Positions 4,110 to 64,000 of a DNA stretch of 64,000 nt are shown one piece after another. Location of the stretch: contig OZ076414.1 of NCBI GenBank assembly GCA_964187785.1, positions 24,490,001 to 24,554,000 of the forward strand, given 5' to 3'. The translations under genes and the position numbers were made by a program. Numbering within the stretch: the stretch's first letter is position 1; each line of letters starts with the position of its first letter. The notes under the pieces are model-generated. The model saw only the letters and a list, made by a program, of their open reading frames with translations. It searched no databases and was not told the DNA's origin. Source of the stretch: Amphiscolops sp. MND2022. Lineage: Eukaryota.

Positions 4110-7100
4110 CTAGTTCTTTTTGTTTTTCGCTCCCTTATCTTTCGATTTTTGAGCTTGAGGCTCAACATTGGAACAGCGCGCCAATGAAATAGTTGCCTTT
4201 CCTAAGGCTGAACGCGGAGATGGTGAACTGTTGCTCGTGCCAGAATCATTACCACAGGTAACATCACCATCGTCAGGGAGACATAAACTAGGAGGAGTGA
4301 TAACGACCTTCTTGTAAGAAGCTTCAAACAAATTTTGCAAAGTACCCCGTCTAGCACTGCCCCTTTCAGGAAATTCCAGACTAAGAACTTGCGGTCCTGA
4401 AGTAAATCCTTCCCCTACCCAATAGTTGGAAAACACGGAAAATGGATCGCGGATCTTGATACAGGCTTGACACGTTAGGTACAGTGGTAAATGAAACCTG
4501 CACACTGCTCACACAAGAACGAAAGACATCCTCATCTGTTCCTAATTTGGGAACGGAATGACAAATGGTTCAGGAATTCGTACCAAAGGGGGTAAGCATA
4601 AACTGGCAAATTTGAATAGCTGATACAACTCGGATCGGCACTGCAACTCGTAGTGCGAAACTAAAAACTGAAACCAGTCGTCTGGCTGAGAAACTCCACA
4701 GTCTCTAAGTTTCGTAACAAATGAGCGATACTGGCTGACAGCTTTAGCTTTCTCACTCGCAGTAATCCAACCAGTACCCACAAAATGTCCAATAAGATTT
4801 TCGACTGCAGCGGTATACTGCTCTTCAGTACCATGCAAAATAACAGCAGAATCGAAGCAGGCTAAACCACGTACCAAACTGGACTTATCAATCTCGTGCG
4901 ACAAAATAATCCCGCAGAGGGATTTGCAGAAAGTTATAGTCTGATCAACAAACTTGCTGGGTCGCGGAAGCTTGCTAGTCGTAACAAGTCGGTGATAAGC
5001 TTCGTTAACAATAAACTCATCGGCAGTTTTAAACGGCAAATCCGTTTGAGTCAAATCAAGGCTCAGATATCGTTCCCAGTCAGAGATATTGCCAAGGACA
5101 CTATCAAGTAAAATATTCTGGAGTTGGCTATAGACAAAAACAGCATACTGGTTGTACAGCCTGAATCCAGAACCGAATTGATTGCGGGTCTCGGAGAACG
5201 CAGAATTGTCTGAAACACAAAAAATTAATTGGATCAATGTAGTTCAAGCCAAATATCATCAAAGTCAAAGACAAAATGTATTCCTACATCAATAGTAAAT
5301 TAGCAGAACGTCATTATACAGTTTTAAAACGACGCCTATACATTACTATACGGCTATCAGTAGGCGGTTATACGCCACTATACGGTCTCAAAATAATGAA
5401 TATACGTCACTGTGCGGATTCCAGCTTATGACCATACGCCACCATGCAGATTCCAATATGTGAACATGCGTCACTATGCGGATTTCAGTTTGTGACTACA
5501 CGTCACTATGCGGAATTTGGCCGGTGACTATGCGTCACTATGCGGAATCAGCCAATGAAAGTACAAGCGGACACTGATCCTGCTGATGAATTTACTGTAG
5601 TGTGCGGAATACAAGAAATGAACTTCCGTCACTATGCGCATAATGAAAGCCAATCATGCGGTATCATGCAGAAATTGTGGTTCCACATATTCGGCGTCCT
5701 ACGAGTTTTGGAGAATAATCGCAGAATTAAAAGTCAGTAAAAACAACCACACCTATGAGCTAGTACATTTTACGTAAATCATTAAGCCAAAGTGAAAACG
5801 CAAGCAACACGGAATACGAATCTGAAGAAATCCTTTGTTAAACGAAAGTAACGAGCACGTGTTGAATTATGGTTAGAAGAGCGATCAAAAGAAACCTCGG
5901 ACAATAGAACATGAGATAAAACCCAGGATATTAGTAAAATTCATACTAAAAATGGTCGAGGACGCAGCGGATTATAAATAATCTGGCCAAGTAAGCCGTA
6001 TCAAGGCAAAACCACTCGTCAAGGGTGTTGGGCTATAACAAAAAATGGAGATTTAGATCAAAGAAAACGGGTATAATATCATGAAAAGATACAATACAAA
6101 CCTCTCGCATGTGGAACCGATAGGAAGGGAGTCTGGAAACTCGGTTCCGATGGTAGAACTTTATCCTAGTGGACTGACAGGGTTTCAATCAAGATTGAGG
6201 CCTCAGTTGGGGAATATGAAAGGTCAATCACGCACTACAAAACAAATGATTTTCAAAACAAGGAACATAACAACCACACAAATTATGCGAAACGAATTGT
6301 ACCTTGTGAAGAGTCGGCAGCGACTGGAGCCAATCTCTATCCAGCGCAGTTTGCAGCTTCATCAGAATGAAATCCAAGATAGTGCGGTAATCGTGTCTCT
6401 CTAGAATTCGGGAAGTAGGAAGGGAGAGACAACGTTCCAACTCGTTAGGACCAAAGCCATTCACAGACGAAGGCCGCAATCGACCAGGTGGAGAAGATTT
6501 GAGGCAGGAATTGAGTCTGTCTGGACAATCGGTGAGACAGATGCATGACGGATGTTTATCAAAAAGACTCATAAAGGAGGCTGTAAGCCCCATCATTTTC
6601 TTCGGGACCAAAGTCCCTCGAGGACCAGTTCCAAGACAAACTTGGTAGAAAACTGTACCAGCCCAGAAATTTAGAAAGATGTGGGTTTCCAATTGGTCAC
6701 TTTGAAAAGACAAAGAACACGTTTCATTGCCAGAAATTGAAGTGACACAATGCTGCAGCAACTCGCGAAACATGTAAGTGATGATGCCCTGCAATTCAAA
6801 CCACGATTTACTTAGGAACGGACCTGACTAAACGATAAAAAAATAGAGATATACTAACAAATAAACGCTCCCGGTTCCAACTGAATGTAGACTCCTGACT
6901 GTTGCCCGGAAATAGCCGAACCATCTCATTCCACATCCCAGATAGGGAGTTGATGTTACCACCATGACGGAGGCCGTATTCGAGAATGGCAATCTGTGAG
7001 ATGACATTCTCACTCGGATTTGAAGTGGTGGAAAAATCGGGGAGCCGGTCCTGTCCAACCAAAAGACGACAAGCATCCAGTTGAGACGCTATGCGGTGGT

Positions 7101-8639
7101 CTCTTTGGCCACCTTTTTGGCTTCTTGTAAGGCACTCCCGGTGAGAGCTTTTTCGGAACGATCAAAAAAAGGCACCCCAGGTGTTTCTAGTCTTATCCGA
7201 TGCTCTTTCACCAAATGTGAGTCAGTTCTGAAGTGAGAAAGCAGTTCTAGGACGCCTCTACTCATGAGTGATAGCTCCACCCGGCATACTCGACACCACC
7301 ACTTGTATGGTGTCTTCTGGCGGTCTATTGGTCCTGTGGCAAAGAATTTAAGCACCGGGTGTTTGAGTTTGCGTATCATGTGGGTCCTCAGAGAGTACTT
7401 GGCCCTGCGCCGCTTACCACTGGAGACAGGCGCATCCTCACAACTTGATTGAGTCGTTGGCTCGTCCACTTCACGATCATCAATCCTGGCTGACGATTCC
7501 TTTGTGGTCCCTTTGCTGGGTGAAATTGGTGGATCTTCAATCACGCTGGAAGTGAAATTGCTAGTAGAGGCAGGATCTGGATCATTTAAGACGGTTTGAG
7601 GGATCCTCCCCAAGATGTTTGTAATGGCCAGTACTTCCCGTCTGGTGATGACCATTTTTGGTGGTTCAACGCTGCTCGGCCCTGGGTTCTCAGCAGTGGG
7701 CGGAAACTCTCTGGACGAGTTCTCCAGCGTTGTCTCATTGAGTGGAGTTTCAAGACCAATCATTTGAGGAGCTTCTGTAGCAAGCTCTGTTTCCTCTGTC
7801 CGGTGTAGAAAAGATGAAAATCGAGGCGATGGAGTTTGGCAGCTGTTCAAAGCTTCAGCGGCCTCAGTAACCTCTTCCATGAAAGCGTCATCAACAGCCA
7901 TTGACGACAAGTTAGGTAATAGTGGACTTACACTACAATCAGGCCTCTGCGGCGAATCTCCTTTGTTTGCCTCTGTGGCCTCTTGGATAACAAGTACTTT
8001 TGGAGACAAAGAAGTATCTAAAACATCCGCGACTATTTGTTCGATCCCGTCATCATTTTGGGTTACAGACTCCTCAATTGGCCGATCAGGTTCAGGAGGA
8101 TTTGCAACAGTTTCTGGGTTTGGAGTAGAAATGTTCCCAGAAGTAGATTGTATTAGCTGGGGGGATTCTCTGATTCAACAGCAGCAACTTCGAGTGGAAT
8201 GTATACTTTTGTAGGGGACCTAGCCGGCGATTTCCGGGTGGATCCAAAGTCAACTAAAACAGATCGATTTAATGTCGATTTGAATAAAGTTTATAATGAG
8301 CAAAACTAGTCCTGTGGAACAACTGAATCATGACGCGGAGAAAGGAAGTTTCAAAAACAGGCCGAATTAACTCAAAACCAAACCGGATGTAGAAATACTC
8401 CTGAAGAAATTCGAAAATTGATTTTCATCAAGATTAAATCAATTTTCACTGTTTAGCCTGGCCAGCTACTCAGACTAAAATTTGATTCTGATCAGAAAAA
8501 CGCAAACCTTAAATTCCAACTTAAAACAGTAATCGGATCTTACCAGGAGAAGTAGACGTTGGCGACTTGTACCCCAGTAAGCAAGTTCTTTCCGAGGAGT
8601 CTGCTGCCCTCTCGATTTTCTGCGGTTCGTGGGATCCAT
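4110..8639 (-). pseudogene. Antisense 6-exon cargo gene of element A: BED-type zinc finger plus hAT-transposase-like protein, multiply disrupted
   Basis: Exons ~8639-8544, 8253-6859, 6788-6303, 6234-6102, 6032-5951, 5209-4110 with GT..AG borders (exon 5 donor mutated to TT). WWCRVCRVELSLMSRGVLELLSHFRTDSH finger. Colinear with the B cargo; several frameshifts and stops. Confidence 0.85.
5371..5545. repeat. Phased array 1 of element A: six 15-bp cores (YRCGYCACYRTRCGG) every 32 bp, inside cargo intron 5
   Basis: Cores start at 5371, 5403, 5435, 5467, 5499 and 5531; spacers are divergent. Confidence 0.9.
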
Positions 8640-9984: not shown

Positions 9985-11042
9985 ATGCACAATCTGCAAT
10001 TCAATCTTGAAGACAGCTCTCTGCTGTCAATCCAATCGCCCAGTATCATCGATGTATCGAGCGACTCTGAAGAAGAGTTTGTTGTACAACCAAGTAGTCT
10101 GCCGAACATAGAAGAAAGATTTAGAGTCGATGGACCGAGATCGAATATGATGACAGCGTTTGTGGGCGCAACTTCTGCAACTCTGTTCGCATCGGAACCT
10201 GAAGATCCTGTAGTAACTGAAATAATCGACACTGCTGGCACCCAGATCGAGCGTCAAATGATGGATTTCATTGAAGAACACCATTTTAGTAGGGAATCAT
10301 CGCCAACTTCCTTCATAGATACAAAACTAGAAGACTGACCAATGTCCCCTTGGGATACGACCGAGCCAATGGGAATCTCAATAAATAGTTACGGAAGGCC
10401 AACAGCTGCAACTCTTCCTACACCCAGGAATACAAATCAGGCGCCGCCAGCAGTTAACAGACCTATACCTACGTTTACAACTATTTTTACAACCAACAAT
10501 CTCGATTTCCAAGCTCAACAACTAGTCGACCACGGACATCAACATACACATAGAATTTTGAATGGCATCAATACGAACGGGGTAAATCTGAATAGTGCCT
10601 TCACCCCCATTCCTAACAACTTGCCAATGTACAACAATGCTCCACTAATGATACAAATACCGCCCCATGAAGGTAGCCTTCACATCCCTCGGTTGAATGG
10701 GGACCCAACCTTGTGCCGACCCACCACTTCCCATTTCATGTAGGGCACAGCACAAACCTGCTGCTTTTGCCTCTTCAAGAGAGACAAATGTACAGACTCC
10801 TACCCACTGTCATGCCTAACGTCGCTGGTTTCTGCGATTGGTGTGGAAAATGCTACGACTTGATTGCATTGGAGACTCTGGGGGAATACCTCGTCGCTAC
10901 CGCCTACGATGGGGAGACAGTCAGGGACAGGGGTGTGAGGTCCCGCGCCTTCATAGATGGGTTCGAGGCTGCACTGTTCTCTTTTAAAGGTGCAGGACTG
11001 TCGCAGCCTCATGGGTGCTCGGGGCCTGTTGTGCAAGAATGA
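9985..11042 (+). pseudogene. ORFX of element A (unknown accessory protein), one in-frame stop and one frameshift
   Basis: ORFs 9985-10338, 10342-10743 and 10713-11042 join into a homolog of the intact 352-aa ORF at 53917-54975. Confidence 0.88.
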
Positions 11043-37342: not shown

Positions 37343-40300
37343 TTATCTCCCTCCCGTCTTTTTGCTTCTTCTATTGCGCCCAGAGCCTTTAACACTTTGT
37401 GCTTGTTTTGACACTGTAGTGCTGGCTCGGCCTCTATTTTTGGCTGTGATAGAGACATGTCGACGTCCGATTGCAAACACAGCCCCTTTCTTGCTTTCTT
37501 TATTCCTGCTTGACTGATCTTTGGACTGATCAAAGTCCGGTTTATGGCCCTCACGGGACTTGTCGCTACCGCCTCGAGCATGTCCAGTTGCTCCAGAACG
37601 GTACTCATCAATGATAGGCGTAGTAGGCTCTACCACATCGGAGCTAACGTCTCAGTCAGTCCGTATTTCAGCAACTGGTCTCAGGGTTCGGACTGCACCT
37701 CATCTGTTGGTTTTGAAACTTGCATATCAGTGCCTTCGCAAACTTACGAAGCAAACCCCTCAACGACTGCCGGGTATGACCGTAGAATTGTTCACGTACC
37801 CAGCTTCTCACAAAATGCACACTTGAGTGTAGGACATACCGCTCATTGCGGTGACACCGACGTCCACAAAGTTAGCATCGTAGGTGCTCACAAGGCAAAT
37901 ACCACACACTAGTTCCAACACTTCACGTATTTCCGCACACCGATCCCAGCAGGGATACGACAGCCAAAGCGAAATGACGTCCTCTACTCCAGAGCCTGTC
38001 TCCCTGGTTCCTGCCCATCGCTTCCTGAAGAACTGAGTTACCTCCCTGTGCTGCCGTTGAATGACTCCGCCGTTGTTGTTCGCAATAATGCCGTATGTTG
38101 TTAACACGGCACAGGTAGCAACCAATGAGTCGACTCGTAGGTCGTCGGACCCACTCTGAATCTGGACAGGGTCAAACAGTGTAAAGCTCTTGTGAGGTAT
38201 CCAATTGTGGTGAAATTGCGTCACAACCTCTCGGCAAACGCTCGTCAGCAAATTGTGGACAGCACGATAAAAGTACGGCAAATTGCCACTTACATCGAAT
38301 CGAAAATACTGCCCGAATTTTAGCTGGTACTGATCTTGGTTGACTGCCACTATCTCACAGGTAATCAGTTGCAACAAGGTAGGGATGTCAAAACTCGCCG
38401 GTACTGAATTGGCAGGATACAAAGATTCTGCCATCGAACGGATAAGCAGTGCCAACTCTCGCTCGACACACAGTTGTTGGTCACGCCGCATTCCACACAA
38501 ACGAGGACAAGCTTCGACTACTGAAACACAAGCAACATCAACGTTAGTTCAGGACGGTAATGAACGAAAGCCGCACATGTAACAGCGTTCAAACGCTAGA
38601 TCCAACGATCCTTCAACAGCTAATCCAAAGCCAATTTTTTTTGCCCCCCCCTTAGAAAATACACAACTAAAACGTCAAAACTACTTACCACGATCAAGAA
38701 TGAAAGGCAGGACGGCAAAGCGGGGACCGACTAGGGCATCATCGAACACTTGCGTCTCAATCTGTGCAACCACGCGCAACTCATATGTAACCGTTGAACG
38801 ATTGCTCCCAAAGTAGACAGATAGGTCGCCCCAGTGTTCAACCACTTCAGCACACAAAGTAGCCAGATGCTGCACGTGTGATTCTCCGTACTGCACATAC
38901 TGAAACGACAAGAACTCACACACGTTATTATTGAACAATAACTTTAGCTAAAATCATCGAGACATATTCCCCACACTACACAAACTCAAAAAAGCTCTAA
39001 ACCCTCCTTCCAAAAAGAACAAACAACAAGCCGAGAATGGCCAAAGTCGGCGTAATATCTAATTCTCAAAAAATAAAAGGGGGACCCTTCGGGCTTTGTG
39101 AAACTCCAGCTGGTTGCAAAACAATTTTAAAAATTGAAAGGGTGACCCTTTGGAGACATGAAAAATTTTCCAAAAAAAATTTTTAAATGAGATTTTTGAA
39201 CAGTGTCACAGTGCCAAAAAATGTAAAAGGGGGGACCCTTTGCAAATTTTTGACATCCATTGTGTTGCAAAATATCGAAACACATGAAGGGGGACTCTCT
39301 GGTGCAATCCAAAAAACTTCAAAAAAAAGTCGCATAGTGCCGAAAAAAAATGGGGCTAAGGTGGGATCTTTAGTGTGCTTTCGAGGTTGTGGACGTCTGT
39401 TTTGTTTTTCTTTTCGTTTTGGACGCGCTTCTGAGGTTGGAGTTGTTGAGGTTTGAAGTTGTTGAGGTTTGAGATTGTTGAACAAATGAACAAAAAAGTG
39501 GACCTTACATGTCTAAAAAAACTACCCACTGTAATAGTCGGGCACATTTTCTACTAAAATGCGCCGACTAAAGAACACGGCCAATGGTAGGACATCATGG
39601 ATGCTATATGGTCTATACTAACACAGTTAAGGCAGATAAGGCAAACGATCGAGAGCGGGGTCCCGAATCACGAACCGAAGCCGGTACCGCAAGTATTCGA
39701 GAATCCCAAATGGCTCGAGTCCTGCAACACTGCTCAGGAATTCTTTCTTCAGACAGTCCAGGATCGTCTCACATGTGAAAACACCCAACACAACATGACT
39801 ACGAGGGGATGCAGCGATGGCCACGGCATGGCCCACGCGACTCGCACCTTCCACTGCAACTGCCCCTAAACGGCTCACTTCCTGCCGGCAAAGAAGAACA
39901 GGAATCAGTGTCTGAATGAGAGCGTTCTCCAACTTGCTTTCCCCGTCCACGACTGCTAAAACTGTCGACCTGACCACTTTGTCACTGATGAGGTTGCTCT
40001 CACAGTGCCACTGATAGCCAGTCCGACAAACAATCACGTAGAAAGCCCTGCAAGATCTGATGGCATCATCCAGCTGTTCAACGACAAATGATTACAAACC
40101 ATAGAGTACCAGGACCTGAAAAAAGACACAACAATGCCACCTATGCAAAAGCCACACTAGCAAAGACAACTCCACCCAACACCCAATGACGCTACACCTA
40201 TCCCAGCTAACAGGCAAATCCGTAAACAGAAAAACAATGGCAAAAAACAATAATCAACCCCCACTAAAATGACATTACATAACACTGGGCATACGTCAAA

Positions 40301-42019
40301 GTTCGAGACTCCAACTGCATCTCGGACCGCAAGCAGTTACTCCAGGAATCCAAACTGCGGATTACTCCTTCAAAGTCTGCCTGATTGAAGTAACATACGA
40401 TGATGTCACAAAGCCACAGGAACTGTGACCCAGCGATTGACAGTTGAGGACGGAGATCACTCGCCATCTCCTCTTCCTCTATCGGAATCCTCATTTCCAC
40501 CGAAAGGCACAGCGTCTATTCTAAACACACGGGAGGCTCAGACATACTCTCCTTGCGGATCCTGCGATCTTCGGCGGCACTCACAAGGCGACAAAATTTG
40601 TCGAGCAGACGTCGTTGTATTATGCTCCTATATTTCTGCTCGATCCAGGTGTACCCTGTTCTCTTCCAATGATCCCACAGGGACGATAGACTACGACCAG
40701 CGATACTCAAGTGGACGCGGCACAACAAGCACCGCGCAAATCCATCTACTACGCGCTTGTGACGCGGGAAACCGACAAATGTTCAGACAATGCCGGAGAC
40801 GAAGTGGGACGGCTTCAAAATTTATGCCTTTCGACATCGTTCTATAACACAAACACAACAACTAGTATGATAAGCTCACGACAAGGAGTACACATAACAA
40901 TACTAGACACTACAATGATCAGTGATGCAACCAACCGTCAGGGACACAGTTCGTTAAAACCACCAAAAAAATTCGAAAAAACCTTACGTAGGTTTATTAC
41001 CCACCGACTATAGTGAAAACGTAGCCCCAGCTAGGCCTAACTTAGTTTAAACCGTACCACTAAAACCCCTTACATGGTCTAATGAGTTCTTACCAGGTCT
41101 TGACGAACCACCACCACCAACTGCAACAGACGCTGTAGACCCGCCCAGAGTCCCGAGCCGATCCAGACGAGCGTCAACAGTAGCATTCACCAGGCCAGAC
41201 ATTTCGTTAGACAAATGAGTGACGACAGCTTCCAAATTTTCCACAGTTGCTAGTCGATCACGCGACACTCTCATACAGAAACCACACATTACCCCAACCG
41301 GGACTCAGCCTATCTACACGGGATTGGCAACAACGACGCTGCTGCCTCCACAGCATGCGTCCAAATACAGAACGCCCCACGACTGTCGAAGATACTCAAA
41401 TACAGTAACTACTATATACCTGTTTGCCTTATTAGAAAGGCCTCCAACTGCTCTCTCAATTTTGGTACAGCGGCTGACGACGTTCCTGACACATCATCAG
41501 TCCGACCGACCAACCGTCGCAGTGCGGCCACAACGTCTTCTCAGTTCAAATTTTCTGCAACACAACACCAAGAAATATACTTATGGCAGATTACTCCAAA
41601 CGAGCATGTGTTTTCCCGGAAAGTACATCAGATTAGAACGACACCGAACCGCATCCGTCTTAAACAACTAAGAAATTATGTGCAACGCTCGACAAATTAA
41701 AATGAGGAAGACTCACAGAGAAAAACACTACAGAAGTAAGGCAAAAGAAAATGAGAAGTCATAATGGATACTACTTACGGAACTCATCAGTCAGTACCAA
41801 TTCCAGGAAGGTGTTGAACGTTTCTGAACGGACCGAAGGAAACAGTCCTGCAAAACGACAACACGTAGGAACCACGGCTACATCAGTCGACCCAGCTTCT
41901 ACCTCGCCAGTAAGGTCCGCTTCCTCTGAAGATAACACCCCAACTTCCTCAACTGGATCCCCTACGATTGACAAAACAATGGCGACGATCTCTTCGTCTG
42001 AAGGATTGATTGCAGACAT
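37343..42019 (-). pseudogene. Antisense multi-exon cargo gene of element C, distant homolog of the A/B cargo
   Basis: Finger CLLCRVHLSIAGRSLSSLWDHWKRTGY (~40730-40650). ILEYLRYRLR..LDRLPYL matches ILDFLLMKLR..LQNLPIL. FDP and DVISLWL..EIREVLELVCGICL match the last exon. GT..AG introns at equivalent positions and phases. Confidence 0.72.
39022..39572 (+). mobile_element. Helentron-like element inserted in an intron of the C cargo gene
   Basis: Starts AACAAGCCGAGAATGGCCAAAGTCGGCG, ends TAGTCGGGCACATTTTCTACTAAAATGCGCCGACTAAA; GGGGGACCCTT internal repeats. Confidence 0.75.
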
Positions 42020-47800: not shown

Positions 47801-48365
47801 CCATCTGAGCAGTCCTGGGCGTTGTCACAGACCCTCCAATCGGCAATGCAGGTGTCGTCGTGGGTGCACTTGAACCCGTCACAAGGGGGAGGCGTCTGAA
47901 CTGGACAGTCGGCTTCGTCACTTCCGTCCGCACATTGTTTCACTCCGTCGCAACCGGTTCCAGCAACGCATTGACCTAAACCAAAGTTTACCATGTTATA
48001 CATTCCATGTTGAATGTCGACAATTGCGCTCAAGGTTACCAACCGTTGGCGCAGATGAAGTCATTGGGTCCACAGATGTCGGCGGGCACTTCTGGCTGTC
48101 CGCACGTGTCTTCGTCGCTCGAGTCTTGGCAGTCGACAATCTTGTCACACTCGAAGCGAGCAGGAATGCAACCCCCGTCGCGGCAAGTGAATTGGTGCTT
48201 CCCACATTGTCTACTGCACTCAATGCCTGAAAGATGAAAGACGGTTCAGTTTTTGCAACTTCGTGAACTAAATGACATCCTATTCAGTTGATGAATGATG
48301 AACTTACCAATGATGACACTTATAAGCAGAAGCAACAACTTCGGATCTATCCGAATGTTTCTCAT
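44876..48365 (-). CDS. Secreted protein of ~1039 aa composed of 22 LDL-receptor class A (LDLa) repeats with Pro-rich linkers; 5 exons
   Basis: Exons 48365-48308, 48226-48044, 47975-47543, 47406-45827 and 45741-44876 (3120 nt, phases 1,1,2,1, all GT..AG, no stops). Signal-peptide-like MRNIRIDPKLLLLLISVIIGIEC; six-Cys repeats ending D/E-x-D-E; no TM, EGF or YWTD segments. Confidence 0.92.
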
Positions 48366-52479: not shown

Positions 52480-53241
52480 TGTGATATTCCTCCTCCTCAG
52501 AGTCTTCATTTGAAACTATTGTTTCATTTAGTTCGAATCTATTTTGACAAAATGGTTTTGCAGGGTTCCTTAGTTCGTGCATATTTGATGCTCTGATAGG
52601 GTGACTATCTTCGTTTTCAGAGTCTGAGTTGTCATTTACTGATGCGTGAACTCCTATAGACCTATCTCTGGATCACGAGGGCTGGGTGTTTTGCGTTTCA
52701 TTTGATTCAGACCTCGGATTTGTGATTGTAGATGCGTTTTTGCTAGTTTTGATTTCTTTTAAGATCGCTTCAAACTTGCTATCGATTTCTTCTCTCATTT
52801 GCCCTATTCTGTCATTGTTTCTTTTCTCCATTTCTTGTGTCCAAACTTGAATCTCATTACTGATTAGACTGGGTTCAGCCAATTGATTTTCCAAGGTGTT
52901 GGGACCTAAATTTTTTTGATCAACCAAGTTAGAATTAGTTAAAGTCATATTACCTGGGTTTGGGGTCTCTACATTCTCTTCTCTGCTTGGAGAAGGAGTT
53001 TCCAACCTTCTAGACCTTCTACTTCTCTTGTTTCCCATTTTGCTCAAGTGAAAATGTATTTCGGTTGCTGGGAAGAATTTCAATTATCTTTTGGTATCCC
53101 AAATCCAAAGAAGGATCAATATAGTCAAAAGAAAAGTTTCACAAAGGACGGAAAGGTTTACAGCAACTGTTTTACATAAGGTAGAATTGATGAATGAATG
53201 ATTTCCAACACTAGATACTCCAGAAAATTAAAAGCATGACA
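52480..53241 (-). repeat. 3' LTR of element B (alternative start ~53300), containing the gag N-terminal ORF MGNKRSRRSRR
   Basis: PPT AAAAAGGGG (53250-53242) then TGTCATG; ends GAGGAGGAATATCACA at 52480. Confidence 0.75.
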
Positions 53242-53489
53242 CCCCTTTTTATCGCAATCATCATCAGAAAAATATAAAAATAGAATTTCATCATCATGAC
53301 ATCAGGTTATATATATCTCGGCTACATGACTTTCAGGAGAATAAGCAGGACCCTAGAAGGCCTGGAAACAGCACAAAATGACGTATGAAGTTGTATTAGT
53401 GGTTGGAATTCTCAATACATTAGAATGATACAATGAATGGACAATTAAAGCGAAAAACGTACAGTAACGAGTATACGCTACTTCTCGAA

Positions 53490-53628
53490 CCGCGTAATGC
53501 CGCATAGTAAAAAGTGCATAGTGACGAGTATACATTATGCTTTAATCCGTAGGATGCCGCATAATTCAATTACGAAAAACGCATACTTGCGAGTAGTCAA
53601 CATATCTCAAACCGCATAATGACGTATA
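53490..53628. repeat. Phased array 3 of element B
   Basis: CCGCGTAATGCCGCATA (53490), CCGTAGGATGCCGCATA (53547), ACGCATACTTGCG (53579), CCGCATAATGACGTATA (53612). Confidence 0.7.
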
Positions 53629-53916
53629 GTCATTAGCACATATGATCATTTGATGATGTCATATCTCAAAAGCGATATCAAATAGAAGCCAATTAGTCAT
53701 TCAATGTGATTTTTGGGTATAAATGTCTAAGTTTTGGCTACGTATGACTTTCCTATTGCTCGCAAACAACTTCATTTATGAAAAGCATCATTAAAAAAAT
53801 TTGCATGACTATGGTAAACTAACAAATAAAGTTTTGAAAGGTGTTTGTTCAAGTTCTTCAAAGTCTATTTGCCATGATTTCTGGGTGTTGATATTGTCGC
53901 TGCTCACATTCATCTC

Positions 53917-54975
53917 TCATTGCTGCACTACGGGTCCAGTACAGCTGTATGGCTGGAACAGTCCCGCTCTTTTAAAGATGAATAGGCCAGCTTCAAAACC
54001 ATCTATAAACGCTCTAGAGCGGACTCCACGGTCCCTAACAGTTTCACCATCGTAAGCTGTAGCTGCAAGATAGTCTCCAAGGGTCTCCAACGCTATCTGG
54101 TCGTAAGTTTTGTTGCAGTACTCGCAGATGCCGGCCACATTAGGCATGACTGTTGGGAACAGCCTACAGTTGTCTCTTTCATTGATTGGCATGTATAGCA
54201 CGTTAGTACTGTGTGCTACAGTAAAAGGAAATCCAACTTGTACCATTGGGTGTATTGGGATTGGTACCCTAGGTAGTATGTCCGGAACTCCTCGTGGAGG
54301 AAGTTGAACCACTAAGGGGGTTGTGTTTGACACAGGTGCCCTCTGGATCTCATTGTAATTGGGTAGGATTAGCACACTCGCTTGCCCCTCATCTTGGCCT
54401 GCATTTTGTGTGACGTTTTGCCCATTGTTTACACTCCTGTCCCAGGGGTGGAAATCTGAGGAATTGGGATGGTGGTTTGGCGGGTAAGTTGGGATTATTT
54501 GACTCGCGGCGTCAGACTGGTGTTCGGCATTTCTTGGGGTAGGTAGGATTGCTGCAGCCGGGCGACCATAGCTATTCAACCTGATATTAATATCAGGGTT
54601 CGGATCACTTGAGGGTTCGTTTTCCAGCTCCAATTCGCTATCAATAAATGAAGGGAGCGAAGACGGAGTGGGCGGCAGATCCTCTTCAACTAAGTCCATT
54701 AGTTCCCTTTCAATTCTCGTTCCTCGGACGTCTATTGTATCTTGAGTAGGCATTTCGTTTTCTCCCATGGGGAACAATAATGCTGTGGTAGCCCCCTTAA
54801 ATGCAGTCATAGGATCTTCTCCTGTCGTATTTACCCTGAACCTGTCCAGCAATTGAGGTACATTTCCAGGCTCGACGATGAATTCGTTATCTGAATTGCT
54901 TGAGATATCGATAACGTCGGGTGACAGAGGCGAGTACAGGGTATCTTCTTCCATGGCAAATTGCAAGTTGTTCAT
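53917..54975 (-). CDS. ORFX, 352-aa accessory protein of unknown function (SIM-like N-terminus, disordered middle, conserved CxxC C-terminal domain)
   Basis: Intact ATG ORF homologous to 9985-11042, with many synonymous differences in the C-terminal domain. Confidence 0.88.
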   Translation of the reverse strand: MNNLQFAMEEDTLYSPLSPDVIDISSNSDNEFIVEPGNVPQLLDRFRVNTTGEDPMTAFKGATTALLFPMGENEMPTQDTIDVRGTRIERELMDLVEEDLPPTPSSLPSFIDSELELENEPSSDPNPDINIRLNSYGRPAAAILPTPRNAEHQSDAASQIIPTYPPNHHPNSSDFHPWDRSVNNGQNVTQNAGQDEGQASVLILPNYNEIQRAPVSNTTPLVVQLPPRGVPDILPRVPIPIHPMVQVGFPFTVAHSTNVLYMPINERDNCRLFPTVMPNVAGICEYCNKTYDQIALETLGDYLAATAYDGETVRDRGVRSRAFIDGFEAGLFIFKRAGLFQPYSCTGPVVQQ

Positions 54976-55844
54976 CTTGTGAATTCTTGAGAAATTTCAA
55001 TTTGGAATATTATTTTGCAAGTTTGAAAATCTGTGTTTTCAGGCGACTAGTTTGTGAGTTTGTGAAGACCAAATGGTGTTGGTTATTTCGCTTTCTTCCT
55101 TCCAAGGCAAGGAAAACCCGCGAAAAAATTGCTTGTCATGGTCTGATCTCCCAAATCCCCTTATAAGGGTTTCTTTCAGGCTTCTGATCATGAGACACGT
55201 GGATGATATCTCGTAAACAAATTCCTTTTTAGGTGTTCCACTTTTCTACATCACCTTATTTCCTCTCATCAGCGTCCTTCACACCGTTTCATCGGAGTTT
55301 TAAATGATACATAAACAAATTTAACCTAACATCAAAGTAGAAAGAACGAAAATGTGATTTACAAGATGTGCCAAGTTTCTGAAACTAAAATATATTTATC
55401 CGAAATTGCATGACTGGAAGCAAAGAAAATATAAATCATTAAAAAGGGGTTCATATTAGTCAAATCATGTTCTAAAAGAGCTTTAACTGCAAGAAGCGTT
55501 TTGTTTTGTTTTAGTCCCGCACTTGAAAAGTGCGTATGGTTCTGCTTTTCCATATGATTTCAATGGAACAAGTGAAATTTAGGATGAAATTACTTAAAAA
55601 GAGTTTCTTCCTGAGATATCATATTAATTTCCCAATGACACATTAAACCTCGTTCGAAAAGAGCAATAAATGCATACATTCTATGCATATTCAATAACAT
55701 CAGGAATTCATTTGTGATAATTAACGCGTAGTTTCTTCAGTTTGTTACATAATAATGATTCATTCACACAATATTAACATTGGTTCATCTCTGTGGACAC
55801 ATACAGCGAGAACCGCAGGATGGCGAGTATACGTCATTACTCAA

Positions 55845-55965
55845 TCCGTATAATGCCGCATAGTCTTCAGCTGGCAATTCCGCGTACTGCCGCATACTCA
55901 TCACTGCAATTCCGCATACTGCCGTATACTCGTCGCCAGTCGATCCGCATACTGCCGCATGCTCT
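55845..55965. repeat. Phased array 2 of element B
   Basis: TCCGYRTAMTGCCGYAT units at 55845, 55879, 55911 and 55944. Confidence 0.82.
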
Positions 55966-56378
55966 CGCTTACTAAATCATTCCAATCAGCATAGAAACGA
56001 TGAGAATGAATACACACTGCTTTTAGATGTCCTAATGAGTCAATCAATCACGCTGGCAGACGTAATTGACGTTTGGACAGCCAATCAAATTACAGCATTC
56101 TCTACGCATCTTTGCGCTTAATCATTCCATTTGCCTTTTTGCCTTCTTTGGTTACATTAACGCCACGCCTTTGTTGTATCAAATTGATTGATCATACAAA
56201 CTTTATTTTAATTTTCAAGTCACATTTATTGCTTAACGCTCTAGTCATAGTTAACAGTCCAGTTTTAGTTGTTCTTTTCCTCTCCATCCCTATCCCTTTC
56301 CAAGGAAGATTACTATTCGTCTTGCTTGTCCTACTTTAGTTGTTGGTTTAGTCTCCTTCTTTTCCTTTTTGGAAGAAA

Positions 56379-59300
56379 ATGGATCCATGTCAAGGTGAAA
56401 GCCCCGGGGAGAAACAAAGATCAAGAAAAGATCAAGCTCCGCATTTTCGTGGAGGAAGAGACTACAATCCGACGTTCTGGGCTGAGCCTGGTAAGTTCAA
56501 CAAATTCAAATTTAGATTTATTTCGATTCATTTTATTAATTGAGTTTTGCAAAGCTGGCCAGGCAGTGCAAAATGAAAATGATCTAGATGCTTATAGAAC
56601 ATTTTCCAAATTTTTTCGAAACGTTTCCGTTTCTAATTTCTAAGCAGCTTCCGTTTCTTCACTCATTTCTTAGTTCCGCGTCCGGAACTAAACAAGAATG
56701 AAACGACTTCCGCTTGAGGTATCCGTTTCCTTTAAATTTTGGTAACAGATTATTGTTTTAGTTGAACTCAGATCAAATCCAGTTACGCCGACTCGATCAC
56801 CATTAAACACTTATGCTTCACTTAAAGCAGCCCCAACAGGTTCTACTAATCCTCTTTCCAACAACGAATCCCCAGTTACTCACCCGCTTCAGATTGACGA
56901 AGGAATAAAGGTTGTGAGTGCACCTCTAAGTCCCAGTCCAGGAGTGACCATATCTGTTACTACGGATGGGGAAAAACTAGAGAGAGATCAACCTAGCTCG
57001 TCTAAGCCAATCAGTTCGGAAACTATATCAACACCGGAGAAAACTATGAATGAACCGCAGTCCAGTTTCGCAAGAGAAATGCTTGAGGAGTTTATTACCC
57101 CTACGACATCTCAAAACCCTCCACCTTGTTACAGTGGACAATTGATGGCGCCTGACCCGACCATACCAGGCATTGGAGCTTCTACCCTTATTCACCAGGT
57201 GGAAGAATCGTTTGACGCGACCCCCATGGAATTTCAGGAAGTAAGCCGAGGAATCACGATCGACCCTTGACTCACTGATGTGGGTCACCCCAACCTGAGC
57301 ATCACAAAGCAGGAGGTTTTGGCCCTAACTAACGTTTTAAGCCGAATACCACATTGTTTCCTCACAGGGGAAGAGCCTAACCCAAACCAGGCGTTGTCCG
57401 TAACAGTAGTGGACGATCTCGCCCAACCCCCTGTACTTACCACTTCCAGTCAGGAAGAGACTGCAATGCCATCTACTTCCGGGGGTATATCTCGACAAAT
57501 ATTAGCGTCGGGACCGTCGTTCCACGGGAAACGAAGGCGACCAAGATACTCTCTAACACTTGGTATGTTAAAGAAGCATCCCATACTAAAGTTCTCTGCC
57601 ACTGGCCCATTGGATGCAGAGGTCAATCCCTACAAGTGGTGGTGTAGGGTATGCAGAACTGAGCTGTCCCTAATGAGTCGGGGGAGTTTGGAGCTCTTAT
57701 CTCACTACCGTTCAGACAGTCACCTGATCAAGGAGCATCGCATCCGAATGGAGGTTCCCGGAACACCTCTATATGATAAGGAAGGTAGAGAACTCCTTGG
57801 GATTGCGCTTCAAGAAGCCAAGAAAACAGCGCGGAAGACTCACCCTATCGCGCCACCGTTAGACAGGTGCAGGCCACTTGTTGGACAAGCTACTGTTCCA
57901 GAACCCAACGCTGTAACAAGCCCTACTGAGAAGGTTCTTTTCCAAATTAGTATAATCGAACACTTGCTCAGACACGGCGGCCATATCACAAGTTTAATTG
58001 GGGTTTACGAAGGACTGTCCCAATTATCCAGCTGTAATCAATTGTCAACCCAGGATTGGTCTGACCAGAGGCTCTTTGTAAGTATCTCATACTCACTTCT
58101 TCTCAATAGGCTTCAATGGTTGAGGTTTCGTTATTATCGTATGTCTTCCATTTGTAATCAACTAAGCTTCCCATGAACAATACAGTCAACGAGGTTTTCT
58201 CATTTTGATTTGTTTTAACAGGGGATCTTGATACACATTTTCAGAGAACTGATGAATTATTGTGTCACTATGGTTACGTCTTCTGCCGTGTATTCCTTGG
58301 CATTGCAACACAAAACCACAACCTCCTACATTATTCTACTGTTTTGGTCAGGAAACGTCTTCCACCGTGTGTGTCTTGGGAGCTCGCCCCGAGGAATGTT
58401 ACTTCCACGCAAAGTTCTTAGTCTCGTTTCATCATTTCTTAGCCTGTTCGAAATTCCTCCATCTTGCCTTACGCTCATCGGAGTGGGAGAGAAATTAGAC
58501 GACTGCTTGACCTCTTCCCTACCGGGCAGTAAACGGCCTTCAATTGTTAATCCCTTTGGTCCTCGCGAGCTTGAGACCAGCCTTGCACTTCCCACTGCAC
58601 AAATAATTGAACGGCACGACTTCCGTACAATCCTAGACTTCCTCCTAATGAAGTTACGAACTGCCTTGGGTAAAGACTGGCTACAAAACTTGCCAATTCT
58701 CCACAAGGTACTTTATTTTTCATTAATTTTCATCATTGAAACACTCAATTTTCGGTATTTAATTTTAGTCTATTCTAGTGTGTACTCCGACTAGAATACT
58801 CCCTCAGTGAGGCCTCCACTATCATCGAGAACCTGTCAAACCAATGGGATCGGGTTAAAGAGCACCTGAATCAAGTTGCGCGACTACCAGCTTACCGCTT
58901 CCACATGAGAGAAGTAATCCTCATTTTATCTCATGTTATCCGTACTATACAAATTTTGGAAGTTGTATATGTATACTTGTTTCAGCCAAGTACCTTAGAC
59001 GAGTGCTTCCGTCTGGACACAGCATACCTGGCCAGACTCTTCGTCATCCGCTGTGTACTCGATCACTGTAAGTTATACAGTTGTTTAGAGCTTTTGTTAT
59101 TTTACTCCAACTCATCAGTATTCTTCTGATTTATATTCCTGAGATAACTTAGGGTAATTTGCTTTAGTGCTCATAATTTTGATATACCCGTTCAGTCTAG
59201 TTTTGCTTGGTTGTATTCAACACGTACTGGCCATTATTCTTTGCTGATTATATTTCTCAATCCTTTTGTGTTTTTGTCTCTTGTAACTAAGTTGTGTGTG

Positions 59301-60781
59301 AGCGCGTAATCGTTTCTTTCCAGTTCGTACTCGCGCATTGAACTTCCTGTGCGATTCCGCATAGTGACGCATAATCATTACGTCTCGTTCCGCACAGTGA
59401 CGTATACTCGTCACACTTCATTCCGTATAGTGACGTATAGTCTCTACACCTTGTTCCGCATAGTGACGTATAGTCGTCACACTTCATTCCGTATAGTGAC
59501 GTATAGTCCTTACACCTTGTTCCGCATAGTGACGCATAATTTCATTCCGCCATTGTGGTAGCAGTGTTCGCAGCTAACGTATATCCACACGTGTAATACT
59601 ATGCGGTCCTTTTGCAGTAAGGTTTGATGCTTTATTACCAGTTAATTAGAGTTTCTTGTTATATTTCAGATAACTCAGCATTCTCCGAAGTGCAGAAACA
59701 GGTGGAAGGTGGTTTCCGCTTATTTAATCAATATGCTGTTTTTACCTACAGCCAACTTCAAAATATCTTGCCCGACAGTGCACTGGGAGATATCTCTGAT
59801 TGGGATAATTTTTTACACTTGGACATGGATCAACCGGATTTACCGTTCAAAACTTGTGATGAGTTTGTTCTAAACGAGGATTTTCATCGTCTGGTTATGG
59901 CTAGTAGGCTGCCTCGTCCTAGCAAATTCGTGGAACAATCCATATCCTTTTGTAAAGCTTTTTGTAAGTTGTTACTTCGCCACGAAATTGCCAAATCGGA
60001 CTTGATCAGAGGTTTGTCTGCTTTTGATCCTGCTGTGGTTTTTGAGACTCCTGAAAGACATTACACTACCGTCATAGAAACGTTGTCAACACACTTTGTC
60101 ACTTCTGGATGGATTTCGGCCAGTGATAAGGTGAAGATTATCAGCCAATACCGGGCTTTCGTGACGAAAATGCGTGCCAGTGCTGTTCCAGAGTATGATG
60201 ATTGGATCCTCTATTTGTCTTCTAATTACGAGATGCAATGTCGAACCGAGTTATTTCTTCTGTTCAAATACTCATGCTTATGCCTGCCCCCGTTGGTTGG
60301 GATGCCGCCCGAAGTCATTATCCTTATTATTTCAAACTTGGAATCTGATGTTGATATGTTCCGGTCATGCCTGCGGAGCTTGCAAGCTTCCTATTTAACT
60401 GTACCCCACGTCTCGAGTTTATACCGAGATCCACGCGCTATTCCCCGAGTTTTTCGTCTCTTAGGGAGGGGAATGGACTTGCTGTCCGATAAAAAGTTCT
60501 CGGTTTGGAACTTTCTAAAGGGCAGTGGGCCAAGGAGAGCGTCTTTGTTGGGCAAATTGGAAACTGGGTATAGGAAAGCTGTTCTTCGCTCGGAGCGGCC
60601 TCCTATTTCATCCAGCAGTACTACCCCTAGTGTGAGTCGACACAGTAGCGTCAACAGCACTCCTTCTCCCGACCCTTCTCTGAGACGGGTTAATTTGGAA
60701 GTTCGCCGATGTGGCACAAGCAGTTCGGAGGATGTTTCGAAAAAGTCAAAGGCTCCAACTGGGAAAGAAAAGAAAAACTAG
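56379..60781 (+). pseudogene. Antisense 6-exon cargo gene of element B (~1080 aa; BED-type finger plus hAT-like body); one in-frame TGA at 57268
   Basis: Exons 56379-56490, 56762-58077, 58222-58707, 58779-58913, 58986-59067 and 59670-60781; phases 1,0,0,0,1 join in frame (3243 nt). NLS-like KRRRPRY; finger WWCRVCRTELSLMSRGSLELLSHYRSDSH. Confidence 0.85.
59357..59536. repeat. Phased array 1 of element B: six CCGYAYAGTGACGYA cores every 33 bp in cargo intron 5
   Basis: Cores at 59357, 59390, 59423, 59456, 59489 and 59522; spacers alternate in a 66-bp higher-order pattern. Confidence 0.92.
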
Positions 60782-60996: not shown

Positions 60997-63900
60997 TTAG
61001 TATCTATATGAGTCAGAGTAGTTTGGGTTAGGATTAGGACGTAAGTTGTATTTTTCACCACGGGTATTTATGGGTTCTTCTTGCAATGGGGTATTTTGGG
61101 AATTTTCTGGGGTTTTCTGAATATCATTGTCTGTTGAAGTATTTGTATCTTTTTGGGTTTTTTGGGTATTATTATCATTTTCTTCATTTACTTGTTGTGG
61201 AGTTTCGTCATCATGATTTTCGTGGTTTTGATCTTGTTCAGTGGTCTGTTCCACTGGGCTCCCCCCACTATTTTTTGAAATTTCGAGGGAGGGAGGGTGG
61301 TTATTTTCGGGTGATGTAATGGGTAGGTATTCAATATCTTCGGTATTTTGTGAGTACTCTGGAGAGTTGTCCTCAAACGGATTAGGGCCGAAATTTGTAT
61401 TCCAAGATTGAGCATATAGATCATCTTGCGTTATCGGCAGTTGGTCATCTTTCTGCCAATCAGTTTCTCGTACGAAAATGTTTGCGAGAGGGGCTTGGGG
61501 GGTAAACTTCCTCAAGCGAATTCGATGCAGAAGTTGCGTCTTGTTAGTTCCTAAGCGTCTAACTATGTAGTTATTGTTAGGAAGGACTTTCTCAACTTTA
61601 CATGGGCCTTGCCATCTAAATTCTCGAAAAGGTATCTTTGTTGCCTGGGTATCCGCCTTCGGGTTTAGGACGTAACAATAATCCGTTGTTTCAAGTGGTG
61701 ATGCCTTTGCTTTCCTATCATAATATGCTTTGTATTTGAGATAGGATTGCATTATGTTCTTTTTGGTTTGGTCAAGCAGTATTTTCATTCTTCTTTGTAC
61801 TTCCTCTGCTACATCTGTATGTGGTAGGTATTTTGGGTTGTATCCAAGCTTGTAATCGAGTATGTTATGGGGTATTCGCCCACGAAATACTCGTGAAGGC
61901 TCACAACCCAGTGTTGCATGGTAAGTAGTGTTGTGGTTTAAGACTGCTAGCGGGAGAAACCTATGCCAATTGTTTCGAAATTCCTCGGTGGCAGCTTTAA
62001 GATGCGTTTTCACTGATGCATGAGTTCTCTCTAGGATTCCATTGGTTTGAGCGTGTTTCATCGTTGCATGCTTGAGCTCAATTCCTAGAACTGCGGCTAC
62101 TTCATGTGTGACTTGGGCATTGAATTGTGTGCCCAAATCCGTAATTATTGTAGTTGGTAGATATGTGTGTTTGCAGAGGATATCCATTATTACTCGGGCT
62201 ACAGCAGAAGCTGTAATGCGTGTTACTGGGTATGCAAACAAATACCTTGAAAAAACGTCTATCGCTGTGATTATGTGATCATAGCTTCCACTTGGAGGGA
62301 GATTGGGTAGGATGTCCATTTGAAGAATGTCTTCTGGACCAAGGTCCCATTCTGGACAGTTGAGAAGTTCCGTTCTGAGAAGATCATTGTTGATCCGTTT
62401 GGTTTGTATGCAAATTTGGCAATTGGTGACCCATTTTTTGACGTATTTAGCAATACATGGGTAATAGTAATTTTGTCGGGCTTCTTGAATCATCTTCGTA
62501 ATACCTGGATGGTTTGAGTTGTGACCATGTAGGGATTGAAGAAATTCTTCTAGAAGTTGAGCCGGAAGTAGTATCTGGTAATGGGAAGTGGTTCCCGTGT
62601 CTGTATAGTACCTGCGGGTGAGAACTTCTTGTTTGATTTCAATTCTAGCGATATTTTGAAGATAATGGTGGTATCTATAGTCAGATGCCAACTCGTGTTC
62701 ATCAAAAGGATGTCCTTCTATTTTTGCTCGTAAATTTCTGAGTACAATATCGTTGTTTTGTTCTAAACGAATCTTCGCATTGTCTCGGAAGTGACCTTCC
62801 GAACAAGTCTTTAAACCAGAAGTAGGTTTATGGAATTGTTGGAGTTCGGTTATGTTATTTTCTGGTTCATTGTGTGTCTCGTTTTGAGCTTGGTCTCGGA
62901 TGTTCTGCTTCTCTTGCCATAATTGGTTTTCATCTAGTTCATCATCGGGGAGGATGTAAATCTGCTCTTCTTCTACGATCCCTGATGATTGTATGTTGAC
63001 TTCAATTGCTTTGGTGTGTATGTCATTTCGAATGGTCAGTTCAAGTTTTTCAACTGGATTGACTTCGGTGCGTGAGAGGAAGTCAGCTGCAGTGTTCATT
63101 GATCCCGCAACGTGGGCGATTACAAAATTATATTGTAAAACATAATCGCATGCATTCCAAAGTGCCGGTGGGATAAGTTTTGCTTGAAAAAATCGGAATA
63201 CTGATCTATTATCGGTGAACACAATTACAGGGAATGTGCTTCCCCACATGAGGTGTCCAAATTCAACAAAGGCAAAATATATGGAAAGGAATTCCTTGGC
63301 ATATATAGACATTTTTGTTTGTGTCGGGTTGAAAGTTTTGGAACCAAATGCTATGGGAGCGTATGTTTTGCGTTTTGATTGCAATTTTTGGTTCGGGTCG
63401 TCTTCTATCATAATGGCATATCCCGCAGCAGTAAAGCTGGCATCAGAAATGATTATGAGCTGTTTGTCTTTGAGGGGTTGTTTCAATGCTAATTGGCATG
63501 AATTTTCGAGGAGTTTATTGAGGTTGGTGAAATCCTCTACTAAGTTTGTTGGCACATAGAATTTGGATGTTTCCTTGAGAAGTTTAAAGAACGGAGACAG
63601 CCGTTCTGAGAGTCGTGGAATGTAGTTGCGATAGTAGTTTAGGAAACCTATATATCGCTGGAGGGCTTTTTTGGATTTAGGAAATCTAAGTTTAGACAGA
63701 AAGTTTTTGACTTTTTCTGCTTGCGGGGCGACTCCTTCAGGTGTGATTGTGCGTCCCAAGAAGTCAACTTGTTTGACGCCAAAGTGGCATTTGGACATCG
63801 TAAGTTTAAGGCCAGCATTTCTGATGCATCCGAACACTGTTCTGATGTTGGCGCATAGTTGCTGGGCATTATTTGCAGCGATGCCAATGTCATCCACGTA

Positions 63901-64000
63901 TTGGGCGCACTGGTCTGCTTTGATTGCTTTATCTAGGTACTCTCTCATGAAACTAGAAAATGCTGAGAGAGATCGGCTTAGGCCTTGCGCTAGTCGTCTA
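60997..64000 (-). CDS. pol: Gypsy pol, open from RT palm through RNase H and integrase (N-terminus outside window)
   Basis: Uninterrupted ~1000 codons: LAQGLSRS, QYVDD, RNase H SDASF..KEF..FTDN, HHCC, D-D-E core, WQGPC and terminal KYNLRPNPNPNYSDSYRY. Confidence 0.97.
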   Translation of the reverse strand, partial: RRLAQGLSRSLSAFSSFMREYLDKAIKADQCAQYVDDIGIAANNAQQLCANIRTVFGCIRNAGLKLTMSKCHFGVKQVDFLGRTITPEGVAPQAEKVKNFLSKLRFPKSKKALQRYIGFLNYYRNYIPRLSERLSPFFKLLKETSKFYVPTNLVEDFTNLNKLLENSCQLALKQPLKDKQLIIISDASFTAAGYAIMIEDDPNQKLQSKRKTYAPIAFGSKTFNPTQTKMSIYAKEFLSIYFAFVEFGHLMWGSTFPVIVFTDNRSVFRFFQAKLIPPALWNACDYVLQYNFVIAHVAGSMNTAADFLSRTEVNPVEKLELTIRNDIHTKAIEVNIQSSGIVEEEQIYILPDDELDENQLWQEKQNIRDQAQNETHNEPENNITELQQFHKPTSGLKTCSEGHFRDNAKIRLEQNNDIVLRNLRAKIEGHPFDEHELASDYRYHHYLQNIARIEIKQEVLTRRYYTDTGTTSHYQILLPAQLLEEFLQSLHGHNSNHPGITKMIQEARQNYYYPCIAKYVKKWVTNCQICIQTKRINNDLLRTELLNCPEWDLGPEDILQMDILPNLPPSGSYDHIITAIDVFSRYLFAYPVTRITASAVARVIMDILCKHTYLPTTIITDLGTQFNAQVTHEVAAVLGIELKHATMKHAQTNGILERTHASVKTHLKAATEEFRNNWHRFLPLAVLNHNTTYHATLGCEPSRVFRGRIPHNILDYKLGYNPKYLPHTDVAEEVQRRMKILLDQTKKNIMQSYLKYKAYYDRKAKASPLETTDYCYVLNPKADTQATKIPFREFRWQGPCKVEKVLPNNNYIVRRLGTNKTQLLHRIRLRKFTPQAPLANIFVRETDWQKDDQLPITQDDLYAQSWNTNFGPNPFEDNSPEYSQNTEDIEYLPITSPENNHPPSLEISKNSGGSPVEQTTEQDQNHENHDDETPQQVNEENDNNTQKTQKDTNTSTDNDIQKTPENSQNTPLQEEPINTRGEKYNLRPNPNPNYSDSYRY

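Follow-up and report, generated by a model that had tools for sequence, protein, structure and literature searches.

Known systems and the locus

Proteins such as DAYSLEEPER and the ZBED/ZNF862-type proteins are hAT transposase scaffolds that were domesticated by their hosts, are under purifying selection, and can dispense with catalysis. Accessory genes of animal retroelements are known as well, among them the retroviral Tas, Tax, and HBZ, with an internal promoter plus elements in the long terminal repeat (LTR). Here, we describe a gene in a 64,000-nucleotide stretch of the Amphiscolops sp. MND2022 genome (the window; contig OZ076414.1, positions 24,490,001 to 24,554,000, assembly GCA_964187785.1) that is spliced, lies antisense in Ty3/Gypsy retrotransposons, and, judging from modeled folds, very probably descends from a hAT transposase that has lost its catalytic site. 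We call this gene the cargo; its two main copies in the window, A and B, are carried by elements A and B. It differs from the host-domesticated scaffolds in its new owner, which is another transposon present in many copies and not a single host locus.

With Spm TnpA and VANDAL VANC the cargo shares the status of an element-encoded accessory protein accompanied by family-specific tandem motifs in noncoding regions and introns. TnpA is a transposase-derived regulator that activates its cognate elements, according to the accessible text of its source, in which neither "retrotransposon" nor "Gypsy" appears as a whole word (bioRxiv 10.64898/2026.08.24.746577), and the motifs bound by VANC are arranged in tandem in introns and upstream regions (accessible text of PMC5735166). 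Whereas both belong to plant DNA transposons and act through DNA demethylation, the cargo travels in an animal LTR retrotransposon lacking a CpG-methylation signature, and its own binding is predicted by analogy.

Plant Gypsy elements also carry antisense open reading frames (ORFs) with repeats. Those of Retand, Grande, and RIRE2 (TRP28, gene23) lie, like the cargo, between pol and the 3' LTR, with their own promoter and tandem repeats nearby, and have been proposed to encode DNA-binding regulators (PMC7264820; accessible text of PMC11963269). Their origin is mostly unknown and they show no similarity to other transposons (PMC7264820), whereas the donor superfamily of the cargo can be named. 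"Intron" is not a word in the accessible text of the Retand paper (PMC11963269), in contrast to the spliced cargo, and TRP28 (PF04195) gave no Pfam row for the cargo at E ≤ 1. The ORF3s of bdelloid rotifer LTR elements are a further case of an animal retroelement with a captured or accessory gene, but they encode env, a GDSL esterase, or a DEDDy exonuclease, and none is described as transposase derived in the accessible text of PMC5408684. The open literature, with subscription journals, Repbase, and Dfam outside the scope of the search, yielded no report of a hAT-derived spliced gene borne by an LTR element. If our reading is true, a class II transposase has been domesticated by a class I element, as a retroelement counterpart of TnpA/VANC, and a retrotransposon would join hosts and DNA transposons as an owner that turned a transposase into a transcription factor.

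A spliced gene antisense to pol

The motifs that a first-pass annotation, made from the sequence alone, had read as a dead hAT-family transposase are all present on the plus strand, between the minus-strand Gypsy pol and a minus-strand accessory ORF (ORF X). The C-x2-C...H...H finger lies in ORF 57271-58176, YSLALQHKTTTSYIILLFW in 58219-58794, NLSNQWDRVKEHL in 58779-59129, and FDP and ELFLLFKYSCLCLPP in 59621-60781, and the copy A counterpart CSLSFQSDQLETHIFLNFW lies in 6228-6827 on the minus strand. Splicing of the gene explains why they fall in different frames. The range first assigned to the protein (57560 to 60400) is indeed inside the gene, but the gene is wider, extending from the ATG at 56379 to 60781. 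In the model of copy B, 1,081 codons are spread over six exons, and the gene lies antisense in the interval from integrase to the 3' LTR (Table 1). The second exon of this copy has an in-frame premature TGA at a place where three near-identical copies are open, and copy A is broken as well.

To sample further copies, we hand-picked 38 loci for spread from two genome searches, which with the two window copies make a set of 40; the searches scored 134 of 6,574 first-look candidates for exon 6 and 150 of 4,787 for exon 3, figures that are not copy numbers. All 134 scored exon 6 matches had E < 1e-124, so the motifs are not a product of chance. The gene is antisense to pol in 40/40 copies; as the loci were picked via the cargo, this describes its position behind pol in the sample and not its presence in every element of the clade.

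The cargo introns behave as spliceosomal introns. At the four that were scored, GT was found in 39, 40, 38, and 39 and AG in 39, 39, 40, and 38 of the 40 copies, with lengths of 58 to 146, 63 to 84, 68 to 109, and 372 to 946 nt and all three frames represented; intron 1 was checked in copy B, and by eye in copy A, outside this tally. No stops or frameshifts were present in the five scored parts of 22/40 copies. From the known retroelement cycle, the introns would survive reverse transcription because, in the genomic RNA, the antisense gene lies the wrong way round for them to act as introns.

Predicted fold and hAT ancestry

The N-terminal half and exon 6 were folded as separate models because a whole-length alignment put exon 6 in the wrong place. 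For the N-terminal half, the query was a locus with four introns all in frame (L051), the three short ones being modeled as loops. In the resulting model, the finger and helices accompany an RNase H fold of five strands (mean pLDDT 64.9; core, 78 to 96), and Hermes transposase fills its Foldseek ranks 1 to 10 (best E = 5.7e-4, probability 1.0). VIA aligned 243 of its residues to Hermes, from finger to insertion (model 8-430 to Hermes 23-344; Z = 6.7, rmsd 12.6 Å). The exon 6 model is all helical (pLDDT 74.9), and VIA placed Hermes at rank 1 of 48,161, with 180 residues aligned (model 2-246 to Hermes 368-609; Z = 5.5, rmsd 8.9 Å), compared with 98 or fewer in the remaining 49 rows. We favor hAT ancestry because two separately folded halves match, collinearly, a transposase that had been named beforehand, each score alone being middling.

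The order of parts in the cargo, namely, a BED-type finger, a helical segment, an RNase H core, and then what are probably a large helical insertion and a C-terminal helical region, is that of Hermes and other hAT transposases (PDB 8EDG, 4D1Q, and 2BW3); for the last two parts, the exon 6 match taken alone is supportive rather than decisive. The finger aligns to 8edg_A from Hermes residue 23 onward, although Pfam zf-BED itself has no match, and its C-x2-C...H...H ligands are invariant or at least 90% conserved (17 rows, two lineages of elements [see below]). The segment that matches the intertwined domain of Hermes is predicted to be helical, with modest confidence. Dimers of Hermes form through this intertwined domain, next to the BED finger, and not through the C-terminal Pfam "dimerization" block (accessible text of PMC10368747) to which the first-pass annotation had assigned dimerization. 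Unlike Hermes, with which it is ~10% identical, the cargo has an extra low-complexity N terminus of ~300 amino acids, lacks the conserved equivalents of D180, D248, and E572 as well as CxxH, RW, and ERxFS, and moves as the cargo of a retroelement.

Several results weigh against this ancestry. Pfam searches of the exons and alignment members gave no hAT, BED, or DUF4371 match, PDB sequence searches with the cargo returned nothing relevant, and no signal came from hmmsearch of four cargo profiles against 67 ORFs of the genome's hAT loci or from hhalign of the cargo against a nine-sequence hAT alignment from the same genome. The Z scores of both halves are middling, that of the N-terminal half being tied with those of generic RNase H-like folds (61 to 122 residues aligned), and Foldseek had no match for exon 6. 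PF05699 likewise had no match in 48 alignment members, a second look at the exon 6 Foldseek output with VIA gave a best Z of 3.0, and the ESM Atlas held nothing usable for exon 6. The checks proposed at the outset gave divided results: zf-BED, Dimer_Tnp_hAT, and DUF4371 gave no Pfam match, whereas Foldseek and VIA led to Hermes, and the hAT-like character first proposed by eye is supported by the fold searches though the sequence tests are silent. For the RNase H exon, the only ESM Atlas rows were bacterial VirB4/TraG ones below 0.8, which were rejected.

The same silence of the profiles, toward Pfam hAT models and toward the nine resident hAT ORFs, would suit a finger and RNase H-like fold acquired elsewhere, e.g., from a Mutator-type transposase or a host gene, and a MULE-like transposase, that of ISCth4, also aligns with the N-terminal half (Z = 6.7, 126 residues). 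Such an origin is nevertheless improbable, given the uninterrupted run of Hermes among the Foldseek ranks, the far longer alignment to Hermes than to the generic folds, and the independent first rank of Hermes for exon 6 in a collinear range. A dead hAT derivative is the reading that we hold with good confidence. As a side observation, five loci of the genome (L101-L105) contain long ORFs for hAT transposases that have the canonical D, D, CxxH, RW, and ER motifs, none detectably close to the cargo.

Catalytic residues

Catalytic sites were placed by motif against the Hermes sequence, with the numbering D180, D248, and E572 (accessible text of PMC2533014). At site 1 (end of strand 1), 30 copies have Q22, L2, H2, T, D, Y, and M; at site 2 (end of strand 4), they have D15, G11, and N4; and the third site, in a proline-rich loop, is E in 8/26 (2/26 in the alternative register). 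The pattern ER.[FW]S occurs in 0/74 sequences, some of them in both alignments, and neither CxxH nor RW is at the corresponding place in the exon listings compared with Hermes by eye. So far as aligned residues can tell, the D-D-E triad is not conserved in the cargo: the residue check proposed earlier turned up no intact conserved triad in the motif-based register, and the loss of ERxFS is borne out. The Gln reported in place of the first Asp is common but not fixed, and the tryptophan of NQWD, read earlier as that of the RW helix, is by its register probably a later aromatic residue of the same helix (by eye). We read the cargo as a hAT-like scaffold, outside the active transposases.

Other observations caution against a flat verdict of "dead." The register is uncertain by one residue, and in a sister lineage of elements (see below), D or E stands one column after site 1 in 10/14 copies and E just before site 2 in 6/14. 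In one of its sub-branches (L129-L132), D follows strand 1 and E follows strand 4 in 4/4 copies, with E or D near the third site in the 3/3 copies that matched the pattern. Together with the D at the strand 4 column in half of the window-lineage copies, this could mean that the cargo, or one sub-branch of it, still nicks or processes DNA through a degenerate acidic site. We consider such residual activity quite improbable, as no position is invariant, other sub-branches carry Q, H, V, or S at strand 4 and, for the third site, A, S, T, P, or V, this third position comes after a proline within a loop that is nonhelical and modeled at low confidence, and ER.[FW]S is absent; moreover, Hermes E572 mutants perform no reaction step (accessible text of PMC2533014).

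Selection, age, and exchange between backbones

The cargo protein is under purifying selection. Between sub-families, synonymous sites are saturated, with a median pS of 0.78 to 0.84 against a pN of 0.07 to 0.28 per exon. Mid-range pS was available in only 2/231 pairs, which gave dN/dS ratios of 0.045 and 0.073, and the three youngest copy pairs gave 0.6 to 0.7, as expected after insertion.

A profile search of 1.84 billion proteins returned 311 matches at E ≤ 0.001, with no informative name among the ten that were looked up, and searches by word index for long relatives turned up 0, 5, and 1 proteins, each of them an unnamed member of the family. A distant match pointed to a sister lineage within this genome (L129-L144), where the finger, the RNase H part, and the exon 6 part lie antisense behind pol in 16/16 loci. 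The gene is old, spliced, and selected across lineages with integrase cores only 52 to 61% identical; between them, the cargo is ~19% identical overall, the finger exon 21 to 26%, and exon 6 15 to 23%. Introns 2 and 4 are at matching positions in the sister lineage, and introns 3 and 5 appear to be absent. This indicates intron gain or loss within a retroelement-borne gene, and one such intron houses a repeat array.

The earlier phrase "domesticated by a retroelement" holds in the sense that the cargo is established as a gene of an active Gypsy clade, rather than being the product of a single nested insertion. We also considered a recent nested insertion of a hAT element and rejected it on lineage-wide synteny and selection. 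No inverted repeat of at least 40 nt brackets the cargo (shorter terminal inverted repeats were not searched), and the only target site duplication found is that of 5 bp at the LTR ends, whereas a hAT transposon has terminal inverted repeats and an 8-bp duplication around its gene. The gene was also exchanged as a cassette between sub-families, because two other loci (L043 and L044) are 90 to 100% identical to element B in DNA up to ~56,100 and from 61,000 onward and 66 to 80% identical in between.

The cargo might instead work mainly for the host or counter other transposons, e.g., as a dominant-negative hAT partner, or its antisense RNA might outweigh the protein. Elements of the hAT type are indeed numerous in the genome (150 scored PF05699 matches of 2,215 candidates), and roles of antisense RNA have been proposed for plant elements (PMC7264820), but the strong selection on amino acids, the absence of a stand-alone copy among 56 sampled loci, and the lack of sequence-level similarity to resident hATs make these possibilities very improbable.

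Repeat arrays and a proposed self-regulator

Tandem arrays of CCGYAYA and TGACGYA motifs, with a TGACG core and a 32- to 33-bp period, are found in the LTR, upstream of the putative cargo promoter, and in intron 5. At least three motif matches are present in both intron 5 and the upstream region in 39/40 copies. CCGYAYA occurs 17 times in element B, compared with a mean of 3.5 and a maximum of 10 in 200 shuffles, and 4 times in 17 kb of flanking DNA. In the sister lineage, TGACGTC is clustered at two equivalent positions, next to either end of the sense ORF. The CCAAT and CCACGCC boxes upstream of the cargo are 65 to 90 nt apart in 33/40 copies.

We propose that an ancestor of the Gypsy clade captured a hAT transposase gene antisense behind pol, and that the cargo would be transcribed from its own putative CCAAT/GC-box promoter. 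Of the transposase, it would have retained the BED-like finger with the helical segment that follows, the RNase H fold, and probably the insertion, whereas the catalytic triad was lost. Probably as an oligomer, it may bind the TGACG-core arrays in its own LTR, promoter, and intron, a step suggested by the binding of hAT BED domains to short subterminal repeats, as described for Hermes (accessible text of PMC10368747). It might then act as a sequence-specific trans-activator or antisilencing factor in a positive feedback, possibly with help from ORF X. We favor such a self-regulating activator because of the precedents of the Hermes BED domains, TnpA, and VANC. Granted a dead hAT derivative, regulation of its own arrays seems slightly better supported than not; taken as a whole, the proposal of a TnpA/VANC-like, DNA-binding self-regulator of the retroelement is evenly balanced. 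The protein and its arrays would form a system in which one could test directly how an animal retroelement may promote its own expression where the genome has no CpG-methylation signature.

Some of the evidence is at odds with this proposal. TGACG(TCA) is also the CRE site of host bZIP factors, and the TGACG core is common to lineages with differing fingers. Cargo genes ~33% diverged in DNA sit within backbones that are 93 to 99% identical, which argues against a tight one-to-one pairing of protein and array. The same dead hAT derivative could coexist with arrays that are enhancers for host bZIP factors (CREB/ATF type), the cargo acting via protein contacts or other DNA, e.g., as a Tax-like coactivator, a decoy for silencing factors, or a tether for nuclear import or integration. 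The core retained despite the poorly conserved finger exons, the cassette swapped between backbones, and the faster divergence of the cargo than of the integrase core (many pairs at least 94% identical in the core versus 49 to 78% in the cargo) would fit this alternative, whereas the metal ligands of the finger and the helix after it are among the best-kept columns in both lineages, and an array lies inside the cargo's own intron, as in VANC. On balance, we regard the host-factor explanation as the main rival, though a rather unlikely one.

For the self-regulator, the VANC precedent also has a limit. CpG transitions in five close copy pairs are not clearly raised (e.g., 7/446 versus 34/1964, with crude site classes), and the background CpG observed/expected ratio is 1.01. 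These values are indirect evidence against silencing of the target by DNA methylation and make demethylation of the VANC type unlikely, so this part of the parallel counts against the proposal, and any marks countered by the cargo would probably not be CpG methylation. Separately, the genome has five C5-methylase matches, the best of which looks DNMT2-like by eye and is an intronless ORF (L145:1462-2526).

ORF X and a possible two-gene cassette

ORF X was found in 39/40 copies and has no Pfam match. The motif V/I/L-V/I/L-D-V/I/L-S-S-acidic, which resembles a SUMO-interacting motif (SIM), is present under a strict pattern in 25/56 copies from both lineages and in 0 on the control strand. A bolder version of the self-regulator proposal is that of a two-gene cassette, in which a dead hAT activator on its own arrays would be joined by a SIM-bearing partner opposing SUMO-dependent silencing, as a module exchanged between sub-families that may have helped the clade to its massive expansion; we offer this only tentatively. 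ORF X is acidic and of low complexity, with a conserved Cys-containing C-terminal block, and the SIM-like motif is common to ORF X and an otherwise unalignable sense ORF of the sister lineage.

Carrier elements and other features of the window

Element B is a full-length Ty3/Gypsy element that continues into the neighboring stretch (L031). Its LTRs are 98.6% identical over 1,482 nt (5' LTR at L031:4013-5494), end in TG...CA, and are flanked on both sides by the 5-bp target site duplication TCAAC. Its gag, with a CCHC knuckle, and protease-reverse transcriptase (RT) lie in L031, and its minus-strand pol gives Pfam matches to RT, RNase H, H2C2, and rve; the order protease-RT-RNase H-integrase is that of Ty3/Gypsy elements. 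The first ~190 codons of gag are inside the LTR (window:52480-53083; L031:4013-4613), and every 3' LTR thus holds a gag stub. Element A, located at the window's left end, is related to B but older, its LTRs being 93.4% identical. A third, decayed Gypsy element (window:30669-43916) has LTRs of ~1.15 kb that are 86% identical, and its cargo homolog was recognized from weak collinear domain matches (iE of 0.011, 0.0044, and 1.6e-5 in a 7-kb search, against 0.54 for the best reversed-sequence control).

Table 1. Coordinates of the cargo gene and associated features in the window
Feature	Position	Strand	Remarks
Cargo exon 1 (predicted ATG)	56379..56490	+	GT donor, phase-consistent acceptor; similar ATG and donor in copy A
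Cargo exon 2	56762..58077	+	Variable S/P/T-rich region, basic patch, BED-like CCHH finger, helical segment; TGA at 57268-57270
Cargo exon 3	58222..58707	+	RNase H-like core (strands 1-5), start of helical insertion; pLDDT 78-96 over residues 211-320
Cargo exon 4	58779..58913	+	Helix with NQWD
Cargo exon 5	58986..59067	+	27 codons, best-conserved part; median pN 0.07, median pS 0.84
Cargo exon 6	59670..60781	+	Probable remainder of helical insertion and hAT C-terminal region (lacking ERxFS), basic tail
Putative Pol II promoter of cargo: CCAAT box (56081), CCACGCC GC box (56163)	56081..56169	+	Pair in 33/40 copies
Repeat array 1 (CCGYAYA/TGACGYA motifs)	53438..53630	.	Within LTR
Repeat array 2	55794..55966	.	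Upstream of putative cargo promoter
Repeat array 3 (33-bp period)	59355..59576	.	Within intron 5
ORF X (sense accessory ORF, 359 aa)	53917..54996	-	SIM-like acidic motif near N terminus; stop in LTR
3' LTR of element B (1,482 bp)	52480..53960	-	TG...CA; LTR match; gag start inside LTR
Gypsy pol (RT, RNase H, integrase)	60997..64000	-	Pfam; protease and gag further on in L031
Cargo gene of element A	4110..8639	-	45-66% identical to B by exon; frameshifts and one stop
ORF X of copy A	9976-11042	+	
Very distant decayed cargo homolog, third Gypsy element	37886..40752	-	Finger, RNase H part, and exon 6 part in order, antisense to its pol

On the minus strand of the window at 44876-48060, ORFs encode tandem LDL-receptor class A repeats, with 11 and 6 Pfam stretches and a period of ~141 to 144 nt.

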